A stretch of 27,083 nucleotides of DNA, taken from the IMG/VR virus record IMGVR_UViG_3300049173_000047, positions 1 through 27,083 of that record. One strand, given 5' to 3'. The notes beneath the pieces are model-generated. The model did no database searches, was not told where the DNA came from, and was given only the letters and a program-made list of their open reading frames with translations. The translations under genes were made by a program, and so were the position numbers. This document shows positions 3,600 to 12,706 of this stretch, piece after piece. Each line of letters starts with the position of its first letter. Within the stretch, counting starts at the first letter, position 1. This stretch comes from a virus. Lineage: Duplodnaviria > Caudoviricetes.

Positions 3600-3824
3600 T
3601 CAGGCCGCGACGCGGGCCGGCTCGGTGTCGCTGGTTTCGCCGTTCATCCAGGCGTCGAGCTCGGTGATCTTGTAGCGGTATCGCCGCTGGCCGTGGCGTG
3701 TGCTGGCCGGGCCGATACGGTCACGGCGCCAGCGGTAGAGAGTCGTGAAGTGGACGCCGATGTATTCGGCGGCGTCTTCGGTCCAGAGCCATCCCTTGGG
3801 GGCGGGCTTGGGCTTGCCGGGCAT
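3600..3824 (-). CDS. Excisionase-like HTH protein (HTH_17/MerR-like)
   Basis: LWTEDAAEYIGVHFTTLYRWRRD.IGP...RYRY...ELDAWM pattern; GAGGAG RBS. Confidence 0.85.
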   Translation of the reverse strand: MPGKPKPAPKGWLWTEDAAEYIGVHFTTLYRWRRDRIGPASTRHGQRRYRYKITELDAWMNGETSDTEPARVAA

Positions 3825-4957: not shown

Positions 4958-5407
4958 ATGCTGCGCGTTGTGTACAGGACCACGCTGGACCTCGAACCCG
5001 GACGCCTCGTCGACCTGCAGGAATCGCGGGGCCGCATAGACGTCAGCATCCACGAAGACGCCGAGGCCGCCGCCTACACCGCAGCCCTCAACGCCGAGCT
5101 GAAACGGTTCCTCGCCAACTGCTGCTGGTTCCAGATCTGGCGCGGTCAGATCATCAGCGTCAACTCCCCCGACAGTCCGCTCACCGTCACATACGAGGTG
5201 GATGACCAGATCGACCTCCGTAAATGCGTGGAGATCCGAGAACGTCGCGGCCTTGTCGCCGTCCACGTCGCCAGTGCTGCAACGGCGGACGATTTCGTCC
5301 GGGCCATGAACCCCGCAACTGAGCGCTTCCTCGCGGGAGGCCAGTGGTTCCAGCTGTGGCAGGGTGAGATCATCACGATGGATCCGCCCGAGGCGTCCGC
5401 GGCCTGA
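4958..5407 (+). CDS. Unknown protein composed of two tandem ~72-aa repeats
   Basis: GGGAGGG RBS and high GC3. Repeats end LNAELKRFLANCCWFQIWRGQIISVNSP and MNPATERFLAGGQWFQLWQGEIITMDPP. Confidence 0.85.
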   Translation: MLRVVYRTTLDLEPGRLVDLQESRGRIDVSIHEDAEAAAYTAALNAELKRFLANCCWFQIWRGQIISVNSPDSPLTVTYEVDDQIDLRKCVEIRERRGLVAVHVASAATADDFVRAMNPATERFLAGGQWFQLWQGEIITMDPPEASAA

Positions 5408-5429: not shown

Positions 5430-6728
5430 ATGCCCGGTTACATCGAAGACCGGTGGATGACGAAGAAGCCGGACCCCTCGACCGGCCAGAAGCGCAAGAC
5501 GGAGCGCTGGGGCAAGGGGAAGAGATACAGGGTCGCCGGCATCCCAGGAGTGAAGGACCGGTCGTTCGAGAAGCTGCACGGCCCTGAAGGTGCGAACGCA
5601 TGGCTGGCGAAGGCTCAGCACGAGTCGACCGCTGGTGAGTTCATCGACCCGCGGCGTGGACAGATGCTGCTGGGCGACTACATCGAGCAGGAGTGGTGGC
5701 CGCGCCGCGACTACGACAACCCCACTACCGAACTCACCGTCAAGGGCCGCGTGTGGACGCACATCGTCGCGCACCTCGGCACCTACCAGCTCAACTCGAT
5801 CAAGACGAAGCAGCTCGGCGAGTGGCTCAAGACCCTCAAGGAAACCGCTGGCCCCGGAACCGCCAATGAGTGCTGGCGCTACCTCTCCGCCATCTTCCAG
5901 TCGGCGATCGACGACGAACGGCTGACGCGGAACCCGTGCCGGCGGCAGACGACGCTCCGCGTGCCCGCACGACCTCCGGCCAAGGCCCGGGCGTGGACGA
6001 AGGACCGAGTGCTCGCCGTTCAGGCCGCGATGGACGAACGCTTCCAGTTGTGTGTCGACCTCGGCGTGGGTGCCGGGCTGCGCTCCGGAGAGGTGTTCGG
6101 GCTGTCGGTGGACGACATCGACTTCGAGGGCGGGCGCATCCTGGTCCGCCGCCAGGTGAAGAAGGTCGGGGCCAAGCTGGCGTTCGCCCTGCCGAAGGGT
6201 GAGAAGACGCGGGAGGTGCCGGTTCCCGAGTACCTCCTCAAGCGGATCAGTGAATCTCTGGAGCGTCGTCCTGCTGTCCCGGTGGAGTTGCCGTGGAAGG
6301 ATCCCCGTCCTGCGAAGACGGAGCGAGAGAGGGATGAAAGGGCTCCGCAGACCCACGCTCTGATCCTGACGGCCGCACGGGGTGGAGCGATCCGCAGAGA
6401 CGGCTTCGACACGCGCATCTGGAAGCCGGCGCTGGCCGCTGCCGGGGTCATCCCGGCGGCCGTGGAGACGAAGCATCCGGTCCGGCACAGGCCGGGCTTC
6501 TTCCGGACGGTGCTGACCTATGAGGAGAGCCGGGAGAACGGCTTTCATGCCCTGCGGCATACCTTCGCCAGCGTGCAGCTGGACGCGCGGGAGCCGATCG
6601 TGGCAGTCTCGAAGTGGCTGGGCCACGCGGATCCGTCGATCACTCTCCGGATCTATGCGCACATGATGCCCGAGGCGGATGGCCGGGGCCGGACAGCGAT
6701 GCAGAACTGGTTCGAGAGCTCCGCCTAG
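5430..6728 (+). CDS. int: Tyrosine integrase
   Basis: Catalytic set GLRSGE (R), PKGEK (K), FHALRHTF (HxxR), LGH, LRIYAH (Y); N-terminal arm-binding/SAM-like region. Confidence 0.97.
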   Translation: MPGYIEDRWMTKKPDPSTGQKRKTERWGKGKRYRVAGIPGVKDRSFEKLHGPEGANAWLAKAQHESTAGEFIDPRRGQMLLGDYIEQEWWPRRDYDNPTTELTVKGRVWTHIVAHLGTYQLNSIKTKQLGEWLKTLKETAGPGTANECWRYLSAIFQSAIDDERLTRNPCRRQTTLRVPARPPAKARAWTKDRVLAVQAAMDERFQLCVDLGVGAGLRSGEVFGLSVDDIDFEGGRILVRRQVKKVGAKLAFALPKGEKTREVPVPEYLLKRISESLERRPAVPVELPWKDPRPAKTERERDERAPQTHALILTAARGGAIRRDGFDTRIWKPALAAAGVIPAAVETKHPVRHRPGFFRTVLTYEESRENGFHALRHTFASVQLDAREPIVAVSKWLGHADPSITLRIYAHMMPEADGRGRTAMQNWFESSA

Positions 6729-6774
6729 TGGATCTCCCCAGATTCTCCCCAGCTCAAAGGATCAAGAAGGAATG

Positions 6775-6804
6775 AGGGCCCTCCCGTGCGCCGGGAGGGC
6801 CCTC
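6775..6804. terminator. Bidirectional hairpin terminator between int and the convergent gene fragment
   Basis: GAGGGCCCTCCCG-TGCGC-CGGGAGGGCCCTC perfect 13-bp stem. Confidence 0.8.
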
Positions 6805-6814
6805 GGCTGCGTGG

Positions 6815-6958
6815 TCAGCAGACGCCTACTTTCGCCAGTGCACGTCGCTGAGCTGGGGAAAGGTGCGCGGGGAAGTACAGATAGCAGACGCCTCCGGTGC
6901 CGGAGACGACCTTGCCACTGGCGTTGTACCGCTTGGTACGCAGCCAGATGTTCTCCGT
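6815..6958 (-). pseudogene. 3' gene fragment inside attP, probably the replacement end of the host integration target gene
   Basis: TENIWLRTKRYNASGKVVSGTGGVCYLYFPAH has 28/32 GC-ending codons, while the upstream part of track ORF 6815..7069 uses rare codons. Followed by a stop and a terminator. Confidence 0.55.
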
Positions 6959-7170
6959 ATGGCTACACATCCGGCGCGATCCTGCGCCGATTCCGGCAGT
7001 GACCCTCAAACGCCTTCTGACCTGCCATTCTTTGTCGAGCTTAGCGATGCATAGTCGAGCGTTGCGCATCGCATCCGTTCATCTTGGATCTCCCCGATCA
7101 CTCCCCAGTGGCACCATTCTCCCCCGGCGCTCCCCACGGGGAGGACCTCCACAGCGCCTCCTACCAGCCC

Positions 7171-7407
7171 TTACTCGTCCCGCTGGAGACTTCCCGGCAC
7201 ATAGGTCTGCCCACACCGCTCGGCCGCCCCGGCTCGCTGGGCCTCCATTTCCAACACGCAGCCCTGGCATGCGCGAACATCCTGAATGCCCCCCGCGGGC
7301 GGCCGGATCGTCTTGATGTGAGCCGTCGACACCTCGCCCTTGCATGGATGTCGGAAGCAGACCCCTTCCTCCCACTCGTAGGTGTCGAGGATCTGCTGGA
7401 GGTTCAT
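7171..7407 (-). CDS. Small Cys-rich (CFRHP...CQGC) protein, probably SOS-regulated
   Basis: CAGGAGAG RBS; downstream of a promoter with a LexA box. Confidence 0.7.
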   Translation of the reverse strand: MNLQQILDTYEWEEGVCFRHPCKGEVSTAHIKTIRPPAGGIQDVRACQGCVLEMEAQRAGAAERCGQTYVPGSLQRDE

Positions 7408-7635: not shown

Positions 7636-8265
7636 ATGCCGCCAGTTGCGCGCCACAGGCGGATCGCTGCTGACATCCAGCGCCGTATCGCCGCCGGCGA
7701 GTGGCGGCCGGGCCAGGATCTGCCTTCGAGAGCCGAGCTAGCTGCCGAACTCGGCGTTCACGAACAAACGGTGCGTCTCGCCTACGTTCTCCTGCGCCGG
7801 GCCGGCGTTCTGGAAGGCGAGCAGCGCCGGGCCGTGTATGTGGCGCATCCTCCACCTATGCGCACTCTCACGGACGCGGACGCCGAGTGGCCGTATTCCA
7901 GCGAGACCACCGACACCCGCCCGCGCGCCGCCACGGTGGAGCTTGCGGAGCGGCTTGGCGTCCACGAAGGCGCGATGCTTCGGCACGAGACGGTGGAGTG
8001 CCTGGACCCGGGCGGCAGGTCGGCGATGCTCGTATCGTCGTGGTGGCGTGGTCAGCGTCAGCCGCATGCTTCCTATACGGCTGAGCTGGGTGTGGTGTCG
8101 CTGACCGAGGAGCAGGCGCACGCGTTGGGGCTGCTGGTGGACGCTGTTGCGTTCCGTGTGGTGCGTACTCGCCTCGACCATTTAGGTCGCCCCCTGGAAA
8201 CGTCCGATCTGATTTTGCCGATGGATCGTTGGTTGGTTCGTCTTGCGCCCATGCGTGAGCAGTGA
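7636..8265 (+). CDS. GntR-family regulator with degenerate UTRA-like C-terminus (HutC/KorSA type); contains a TTA codon
   Basis: RIAADIQRRIAAGEWRPGQDLPSRAELAAELGVHEQTVRLAY..L...G; C-terminal VVRTRLDHLGRPLETS; in-frame TTA at 8182-8184. Confidence 0.85.
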   Translation: MPPVARHRRIAADIQRRIAAGEWRPGQDLPSRAELAAELGVHEQTVRLAYVLLRRAGVLEGEQRRAVYVAHPPPMRTLTDADAEWPYSSETTDTRPRAATVELAERLGVHEGAMLRHETVECLDPGGRSAMLVSSWWRGQRQPHASYTAELGVVSLTEEQAHALGLLVDAVAFRVVRTRLDHLGRPLETSDLILPMDRWLVRLAPMREQ

Positions 8266-11581: not shown

Positions 11582-12007
11582 TCACTTTGCGGGCGTGGCG
11601 TAGGACCGGAACCCAATTCGCTCCGCTTCCGCGGCCAGTGTCTCGCGCCAGCCGTCCGGCGGCGGGTGCTCGGTGTCCTCGCCGTCACCCCGGTAGTACA
11701 GCCAGGGCTCCGGGTAGGCGCTGGTGGTGATGAACTCAATGCCGAGCCGCTGCGCGTCGGCGAGCAGCGCGTCCACAGCTACGGACAGTCCGCTCCGGAT
11801 CTTCGCATTGCGCACTGGGTAGCGGGTGTACAGCGTCCCTTCAGTGGAGACATGCCCCGCGTCGGGATCGTTGTTGGCGAACCCGTCGTCGCTGTAGTCG
11901 AGCTTGGCGTGCCAGCCTCCGTATGGCTCGTCGTGGATGCGCTCGGCGAGGGGTGCCCAGGTCACGGTGATGCCAGTGGACCAGTAACGGCCCGACTTGC
12001 TGATCAT
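11582..12007 (-). CDS. Hypothetical protein (141 aa) coupled to the resolvase
   Basis: ATGA overlap with the resolvase stop; GAAAGGA RBS. Confidence 0.8.
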   Translation of the reverse strand: MISKSGRYWSTGITVTWAPLAERIHDEPYGGWHAKLDYSDDGFANNDPDAGHVSTEGTLYTRYPVRNAKIRSGLSVAVDALLADAQRLGIEFITTSAYPEPWLYYRGDGEDTEHPPPDGWRETLAAEAERIGFRSYATPAK

Positions 12008-12579
12008 GCTTGGGTCCTTTCCAGATACCGGTAGATGGTGGTGCGGGCGACGCCGAGTTCGTCGGCGATGTCCTGCACCGTGTGCTTGCGCTTACCGTCG
12101 TCGCCGAGCTCGTCGTACATCTCCTGAGCGAGCTTGACCTGGCGGGGCTTGAGGGCCTGCTTCCTGCCCCCGACCCTCCCCCGCGCACGGGCGGCGGCGA
12201 GTCCGTCGTGGGTGCGTTCGACCATCATGGCGTGCTCGAACTCTGCGATGGCGCCGAGGATCTGAAAGAACATGCGGCCCGTATGCGTGCTCGTGTTGAT
12301 GCCTTGGTCGAGGACGACGAGATCGACCTTCTGTTCTCGCAGCCGGTCCGACAGCTCGATGAGGTTCTTCAGGGAGCGGCCGAGCCGGTCCAACTTGGTG
12401 ATGACGAGCTCGTCTCCTTCGCGTGCGGCGATGAGGGCCTTGTCGAGCTCGGGTCGAGAGGCGAGCTTGCCGGACGCCTTGTCGACGAAGATGCGGTCGC
12501 AGTTCGCTGCGGCGAGGGCGTCCTCCTGTGCCTCGGGGTGCTGATCGCGGGTCGAGACCCGCCCGTATCCGATTCTCAT
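12004..12579 (-). CDS. Small serine recombinase (resolvase/invertase) with C-terminal HTH
   Basis: MRIGYGRVST.DQ (catalytic Ser), KLDRLGRSL, AEFE...ERT..GLAAARARGRVGGRK, IADELGVARTTIYRYL; TACACT-N6-ATG at 12579. Confidence 0.95.
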   Translation of the reverse strand: MRIGYGRVSTRDQHPEAQEDALAAANCDRIFVDKASGKLASRPELDKALIAAREGDELVITKLDRLGRSLKNLIELSDRLREQKVDLVVLDQGINTSTHTGRMFFQILGAIAEFEHAMMVERTHDGLAAARARGRVGGRKQALKPRQVKLAQEMYDELGDDGKRKHTVQDIADELGVARTTIYRYLERTQA

Positions 12580-12706
12580 AACCCTAGTGTAGCGATACTC
12601 GAACCGTTTGTGCGACATAGTTGAGGACACGAGTTTGCGTCAGAACTGTCCTGCGGCAACGTACTTGCGCGGCGCGAGCCCATCTTTCGTTCGTTTGCGG
12701 ACACAC
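12580..12706. promoter_or_regulatory. res-like site and promoter upstream of the resolvase
   Basis: Lower-GC tract with repeated half-site-like words TTTGTGCGACA, GTTGAGGACA, TTTGCGTCAGA, TTTGCGGACA. This is the usual position of res. Confidence 0.5.

Follow-up and report, generated by a model that had tools for sequence, protein, structure and literature searches.

Results

Organization of the phage attachment region

The window, a stretch of 27,083 nucleotides from a virus of the Caudoviricetes, is a phage contig with matches to tape measure, major tail and Dit proteins, together with a repressor and an excisionase-like gene. The translation of its integrase gene (5430-6728) shows the motifs LRSGE, HALRH, LGHA and IYAH, and, as in elements of the icd type, this tyrosine integrase adjoins the attachment site. 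The features of the region are as follows.

3600..3824, minus strand: excisionase-like gene (phrog_66, E 3e-10; homologues in both integrated elements)
5430..6728, plus strand: tyrosine integrase of 432 aa, convergent with the replacement gene end (PF00589, E 2e-16; phrog_1, E 2e-45)
6729..6752, plus strand: two TCCCC-type repeats, putative integrase arm-type sites on the integrase side (repeat families D2 and D6)
6774..6804, minus strand: 13-bp hairpin, predicted terminator between the replacement end and the integrase gene (single-sequence folding)
6815..6817, minus strand: stop codon of the replacement piece (it follows residue 46 in 12/12 element copies and 68/73 hosts)
6818..6862, minus strand: last 15 codons, phage-lineage tail, predicted C-terminal helix beyond the shared C39 fold (codon comparison and domain model)
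6848..6856, minus strand: CAGGTCAG-like motif inside the tail codons, likely accessory-protein site of attP (motif counts)
6863..6955, minus strand: 31 host-like codons, host protein residues 411-441 (identity to hosts; domain model)
6940..6949, minus strand: right core-type inverted repeat, inside the coding piece (sequence register)
6950..6956, minus strand: 7-bp overlap GGAGAAC, likely strand-exchange region (inverted-repeat register; host identity begins here)
6957..6966, minus strand: left core-type inverted repeat, phage only (sequence register)
7017..7025, minus strand: second copy of the CAGGTCAG motif, other arm (loose form in 11/12 attP/attR left arms)
7085..7140, plus strand: more TCCCC-type repeats, putative arm-type sites on the far side (repeat analysis)
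7171..7407, minus strand: 78-aa gene that marks the opposite end of the integrated element (homologue before the displaced host 3' end in genomes G001 and G002)

Other genes were also observed in the window. A 149-aa gene (4958-5407, plus strand) between the repressor and the integrase is conserved in relatives and consists of two similar halves; it had no Pfam or PHROG match. A GntR-family regulator with a UTRA domain (7636-8265, plus strand) adjoins the attachment region and occurs in only some relatives, and the phage has, besides its tyrosine integrase, a resolvase-family serine recombinase (12004-12630, minus strand; PF00239, E 2e-42). No sigma-70-like promoter was found in 6650-7250, and blastn of 6700-7150 against an annotated phage collection gave no match.

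The phage carries the last 46 codons of a Streptomyces gene

An earlier sequence-only reading had proposed that this region holds no tRNA or tmRNA 3' end and instead carries 47 codons on the minus strand, from about 6958 to a stop and a 13-bp hairpin, as the replacement end of a host gene. The strand, frame, stop and hairpin were present as described, the hairpin mapping to 6774-6804, while the host-derived piece proved to be 46 codons long, starting at 6955. Positions 6955-6815 (minus strand) correspond to the final 46 codons of a C39-like peptidase gene of Streptomyces; the piece begins at a Glu codon (6955), and of the preceding Thr codon only the last base (6956) is common to the host. ARAGORN, which detects whole genes and not 3' fragments, found no tRNA or tmRNA in the window, there was no tRNA in 40 loci related to its attachment region, and the duplicated segment is coding rather than a tRNA or tmRNA 3' end.

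A Pfam search with the replacement peptide alone returned no family. A peptide scan covering 17 of 64 parts of the bacterial genomes gave 601 stretches, at least 365 of which encode a relative. The best 80 of these relatives were all from Streptomyces; the peptide ends a long frame in 73 of these 80 loci and is an orphan in seven. This places it at the extreme C-terminus of a conserved chromosomal Streptomyces protein, the match that the sequence-only reading had named as support. DNA identity to the window begins at 6956 or 6955 in 72 of the 73 intact loci, as abruptly as predicted and within the interval named beforehand (6950-6975). Contigs from public runs likewise part from the window: on one side at 6956, where host-type sequence takes over, and on the other at about 6864-6870.

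The target protein has about 456 residues, with PF13529 (Peptidase_C39_2) at residues 243-394 (E 4e-26), and is called "peptidase C39 family protein" in the source annotations. A TetR gene follows it in 64 of the 80 loci. Matches to its C-terminus were present in 399 of the 401 Streptomyces genomes searched, a tally that includes the unpublished genome G135, and more than one copy was found in 25, two of which were known beforehand. Cys, His and Asp residues are invariant in 71/71 aligned sequences. A twin Arg at positions 9-10 near the N-terminus is invariant in 26/26 sequences, which we take to fit the Tat signal consensus for export, and the peptidase is probably exported.

A PDB sequence search with a 26-sequence profile of the target gave no match. 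A full-length AlphaFold model (pLDDT 45) was set aside, and a domain model of residues 234-455, built with 71 sequences (pLDDT 89.6), was used instead. The domain model aligned with the solved C39 domains 3erv (Z 15.0, rmsd 2.9, 156 aligned) and 6mpz (Z 14.3, rmsd 2.1, 130 aligned), and both alignments stop at model residues 206-209, that is, at protein residues ~439-442. The PF13529 match, the invariant Cys/His/Asp and the papain-like fold of the model together characterize the predicted product as a C39-like peptidase.

Codon usage and hairpin of the replacement end

The first 32 codons noted in the window have 28 G/C endings and the last 15 have 7 (Fisher p = 0.009, with the boundary picked post hoc), a recount that agrees with the earlier figures. 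G/C endings in the tail numbered 81/150 in ten phage attP copies and 16/30 in two integrated copies, versus 1040/1095 in the 73 intact host genes; in the first 31 codons they made up 93% in element copies versus 95% in hosts. The codon split is thus family-wide and not due to chance.

The hairpin of the window had a z of -5.2, and 0/200 shuffles were equally stable. In all 13 copies folded, the stop was followed by a strong hairpin (z -2.9 to -8.8); the hairpin sequences differ between copies. Because the RNAalifold alignment of these 13 hairpins was out of register and gave 7 pairs only, we used single folds and claim no covariation. The hairpin likely ends transcription of the rebuilt gene, of the integrase gene, or of both.

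Upstream of the piece the open frame continues, giving 84 codons in the window, and gene callers predict proteins of 60-100 aa that end in the replacement peptide, as would be expected if the ORF were a phage gene and the phage integrated elsewhere, for example at a tRNA. Across ten phage copies, however, this upstream frame ranges from 2 to 70 codons and is unconserved, in line with the earlier remark that it does not look coding; by this comparison the 84-aa ORF is no gene. The absence of tRNA genes from the window and the 40 related loci argues in the same direction, and the integrated copies, which map to the peptidase gene, refute the idea through their junctions in G001 and G002, so that its probability is practically nil.

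Integrated relatives keep the peptidase gene at full length

The same layout of orphan end, hairpin, repeats and convergent integrase was found in 8/8 viral loci and in one MAG contig, with integrases 54-92% identical to that of the window. In two genomes, G001 and G002, both element ends lie on one contig, ~62 and ~102 kb apart; these elements were read over ~19 kb at each end. At one end the full-length peptidase gene is followed by the hairpin, the repeats and an integrase 83-84% identical to that of the window, and then by repressor and excisionase homologues. The opposite end holds the 78-aa gene and arm repeats, followed by the displaced host end and the host TetR gene. As at icd, the replacement runs in frame to a stop, the gene is full length when the element is integrated, and the host end is displaced. 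The proposal that the integrase cuts inside a host coding sequence and that a phage-supplied C-terminus restores the gene is thereby supported at both ends in both genomes. The target is not disrupted in the integrated state, as it is under regulated gene integrity: a full-length frame was present in 5/5 genomes examined. The two 46-residue ends differ at 7 positions in G001 and 6 in G002, six of them within the last 15 residues in each genome, so that lysogeny changes the allele at the sequence level, as the earlier reading had thought possible.

Beyond G001 and G002, no integrated copies of the window's integrase family were found in heavily overlapping samples of 401 and 381 genomes. No junction in the public-run contigs was assignable to a lysogen of the window's phage, no RNA run with the window sequence was listed among the sequencing runs, and no host of this phage itself was found.

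Further traces of such elements were seen in other genomes. One (L149 in G345) is a decayed phage-type piece with a hairpin and an arm repeat, on a different contig from the host gene. At another locus (L013:6094-6144) an intact host gene ends in a tail that resembles those of phages (mean ~32/45) more than those of hosts (25/45) and is followed by host DNA; it may be the product of phage-to-host transfer.

Position of the crossover

Inverted-repeat scoring over 12 attP and attR copies gave a mean of 6.7/10 for the 7-bp spacer at 6956-6950, versus at most 4.8 at 53 other placements. By sequence register, an overlap of about 7 bp common to attB thus lies between inverted core sites, and putative arm-type direct repeats stand on both sides, as in icd-type elements. 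Every related phage or integrated copy retains the TCCCC-type repeats on the integrase side. In G001 and G002, the two ends begin to match at the first spacer base. As the long identity block that follows cannot itself place the crossover in these genomes, the crossover was positioned from the inverted repeat and from a second family of integrases, described below, that uses the same spacer; there, identity ends 14 bases past the start of the Glu codon in six genomes, which bounds the crossover.

The overlap is GGAGAAC in 47/73 host loci and CGAGAAC in 19/73. This Trp/Phe codon difference may limit which hosts accept the phage, since tyrosine integrases tend to need identity in the overlap, as stated in part of PMC10111431.

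The first 31 codons follow the host and the last 15 the phage lineage

Over an 87-nt block, the two lysogen ends agree at 86/87 and 87/87 nucleotides, a variant unique to G002 being among those shared. Of 876 other phage-host pairs, none exceeded 84/87, and 0.2% of 2628 host-host pairs reached 86. The tails of the lysogen ends agree at only 24/45 and 29/45 nucleotides, in keeping with the earlier suggestion that the last 15 codons are recoded or divergent, and tail likeness was higher between phages (mean 31/45) than between phage and host (25/45). Because of these end-to-end and cross-pair identities, we conclude from the sequences that the block goes with the host and the tail with the phage lineage. 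Either conversion after integration or a prior adaptation of the phage to its host species may have matched the block. The two pairs fit either course: the 876 pairs are mostly not natural phage-host pairs, and a pre-matched phage would score alike.

An 87-nt block (near-)identical at both ends of G001 and G002 would also suit a fragment that merely offers extended homology for insertion, through homologous recombination or as leftover captured DNA, with the protein function unselected; a crossover anywhere inside the block fits both. Such a fragment would hardly be expected to retain its frame and stop position in 12/12 copies, to change mostly at synonymous positions (361 synonymous versus 192 non-synonymous codon pairs in the block), or to be followed by a hairpin in 13/13 copies beside a 7-bp core and arm repeats, and we regard this explanation as very improbable.

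In the domain model the crossover falls in helix 174-181; the block would add the remainder of this helix plus the final strand, and for the tail an additional helix outside the shared C39 fold is predicted. The window tail differs from the 73 hosts by 4-7 of 15 residues (median 6), versus a host-host median of 3. This difference invites the reading that the tail swap is a selected lysogenic conversion, in which altered activity, stability or localization of the exported peptidase benefits the prophage. Against it, the crossover comes after the codons for the catalytic Cys, His and Asp, the altered residues map to the predicted helix beyond the shared fold, and the tail keeps its length and its P-x-Q, A-L and G positions. 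The phage tails also vary among themselves (295/825 codon pairs non-synonymous), and the tail positions that are the most phage-specific are third codon positions that form a DNA motif. Even with the island tails described below in its favour, a selected conversion seems quite unlikely to us.

A DNA motif within the tail codons

A CAGGTCAG-like motif occurs in the tail of 8/12 element copies versus 2/73 hosts, the strict motif being absent from 4/12 element tails; one third codon position is T in 12/12 element copies versus 10/73 hosts. A looser form, defined post hoc from the same data, was found within 200 nt after 26/29 related, more distant integrases versus 9/140 background windows. From these counts we infer that the motif is a binding site for an accessory protein of attP. 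We propose that the tail doubles as this binding site, which would account for its phage-specific, low-G/C codons and for the end of host likeness. An overlapping DNA motif, together with relaxed constraint on a helix at the periphery, accounts for the recoded tail better than a deliberate change of the host protein does.

A second integrase family at the same gene end

The second family, present in most multi-copy genomes, consists of genomic islands that encode a tyrosine integrase of 380 aa and carry defence-like or biosynthetic cargo. Its integrase (for example L102:10149-11291 in G004, and loci L189-L218) is 23% identical to that of the window over 362 columns, and the last 53 bp of its gene overlap the peptidase tail in antisense. 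In 20 island pairs, six of them paired by inference because their ends lie on separate contigs, the two ends differ by 0-22 of 46 residues. This comparison omitted 7 of 29 multi-copy genomes (G170, G213, G249, G262, G269, G345 and G348), in which the second copy was decayed, frameshifted, unlinked or a full-length paralogue. The last 47 residues of the island integrase were matched in 55/401 genomes, and the best 30 loci all lie at the peptidase end. For 13 of these 30 loci, a single copy of the C-terminus was detected in the genome, so at least 13 genomes appear to be hosts that kept an island tail. Island tails persist in many species. Tails that differ from the displaced end by up to 22/46 residues and are kept without a detected second copy are the further point in favour of the selected conversion weighed above. 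Tandem insertions and scars were also observed at the site in several genomes (G103, G118 and G238).

A broader reading can be drawn from these islands: the peptidase 3' end would be a docking site common to at least two integrase families that repeatedly swap the C-terminus, with recombination signals in the last codons (the binding motif in phages, the antisense integrase gene end in islands), alleles fixed species-wide, and enzyme function altered, amounting to lysogenic conversion by allele replacement. Taken as a whole, we consider this doubtful.

Related integrases at other genes

No distant relative of the window's integrase was found at a tRNA. At L162-L171 and L173-L175, integrases 46-48% identical to that of the window are convergent with the 3' end of a gene of the MurA/EPSP-synthase family (PF00275 in L162), of which L168 has a few bases only, and the hairpin at these loci contains the same CAGGTCAG motif. 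In L172, L177, L180 and L187 the integrase is followed by an orphan 3' end (~37 codons) of a 3-hydroxyacyl-CoA dehydrogenase gene (PF00725), which implies that the integrase clade also targets this gene. An integrase ~58% identical (L160:279-1343) converges on a YceI-domain gene, a possible further target. L176, L185 and L188 have a common short sequence after the integrase that, we presume, resembles the 3' end of RNase P RNA; an Rfam search of these loci found nothing. Two phage integrases 63-66% identical to that of the window (L229 and L230) have the same arm repeats, a different core and no peptidase piece, which on sequence grounds marks a recent target switch.

Discussion

Our results very probably describe the intact attP of a temperate Streptomyces phage, whose likely 7-bp crossover lies in a C39-like peptidase gene that is kept at full length, with a host-matched block and a tail that likely doubles as a protein-binding site. 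We propose that the integrase crosses over at the 7-bp overlap, 46 codons before the end of the peptidase gene, and that the phage-supplied 46 codons, stop and predicted terminator would keep the integrated gene full length. The first 31 replacement codons would finish the predicted catalytic fold, and recombination or gene conversion with the resident host copy would likely keep this block identical to it. The final 15 codons would form a peripheral helix and likely double as a protein-binding site of attP.

The strategy itself is known from phage 21 and e14 at icd; the target was not found in the literature searched. Phage 21 and e14 are listed at icd in the part of PMC12540744 consulted, and many islands reconstitute their target according to parts of PMC12884075. 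One supplementary file of PMC12884075 holds no C39 entry, and the main text of PMC13626063 does not mention C39 or Streptomyces. A full-text literature search gave no paper on the site or the CAGGTCAG motif; the TIGER and ProBord databases may list the site.

These findings name an integration hotspot whose crossover is predicted to span 7 bp, located in a gene that has matches in nearly all Streptomyces genomes sampled. The peptidase gene end is a candidate non-disruptive site for integrating vectors, whose reach would follow the share of host loci with the phage 7-mer, in a sample biased to close matches. Annotators should not call genes from the short orphan frames at such sites. The tail also offers a natural case of probable dual coding, in which the fold-forming part tracks the host and the last helix carries a likely recombination signal. 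That three element families restore or rewrite an uncharacterized peptidase suggests that the gene matters to its host.

Several known systems resemble the present one in part. The Streptomyces phages phiC31, phiBT1, TG1 and phiJoe insert in protein genes with serine integrases; they share with our phage a protein-gene attB in Streptomyces and differ in their serine mechanism, which has no arm sites, and in their targets. The tRNA-targeting Streptomyces elements pSAM2, SLP1 and VWB have a tyrosine integrase, arm sites on both sides, and a duplicated gene end followed by a hairpin, an arrangement that recurs here, except that the duplicated end is protein-coding.

Phage 21 and e14 have different integrases. 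The site described here likewise receives two different elements at one gene, and it resembles theirs, and genomic islands with attP replacement sequence, in the tyrosine integrase and the site inside a protein gene, in the attP-borne 3' part that keeps the gene whole, and in an identity block extending well past the 7-bp core, as far as the portions of PMC10111431 and PMC12540744 consulted describe them. Unlike the icd elements, which use a central metabolic enzyme, ours involves an actinobacterial host and integrase clade and a probably exported C39-like peptidase, and a motif associated with the attachment site appears to be written into the replacement codons. Insertion within a protein gene is also common to the targets of regulated gene integrity or active lysogeny, comK, sigK and spoVFB (PMC12540744 and PMC10111431, in part); there the gene stays broken until excision, whereas here it is rebuilt at integration.
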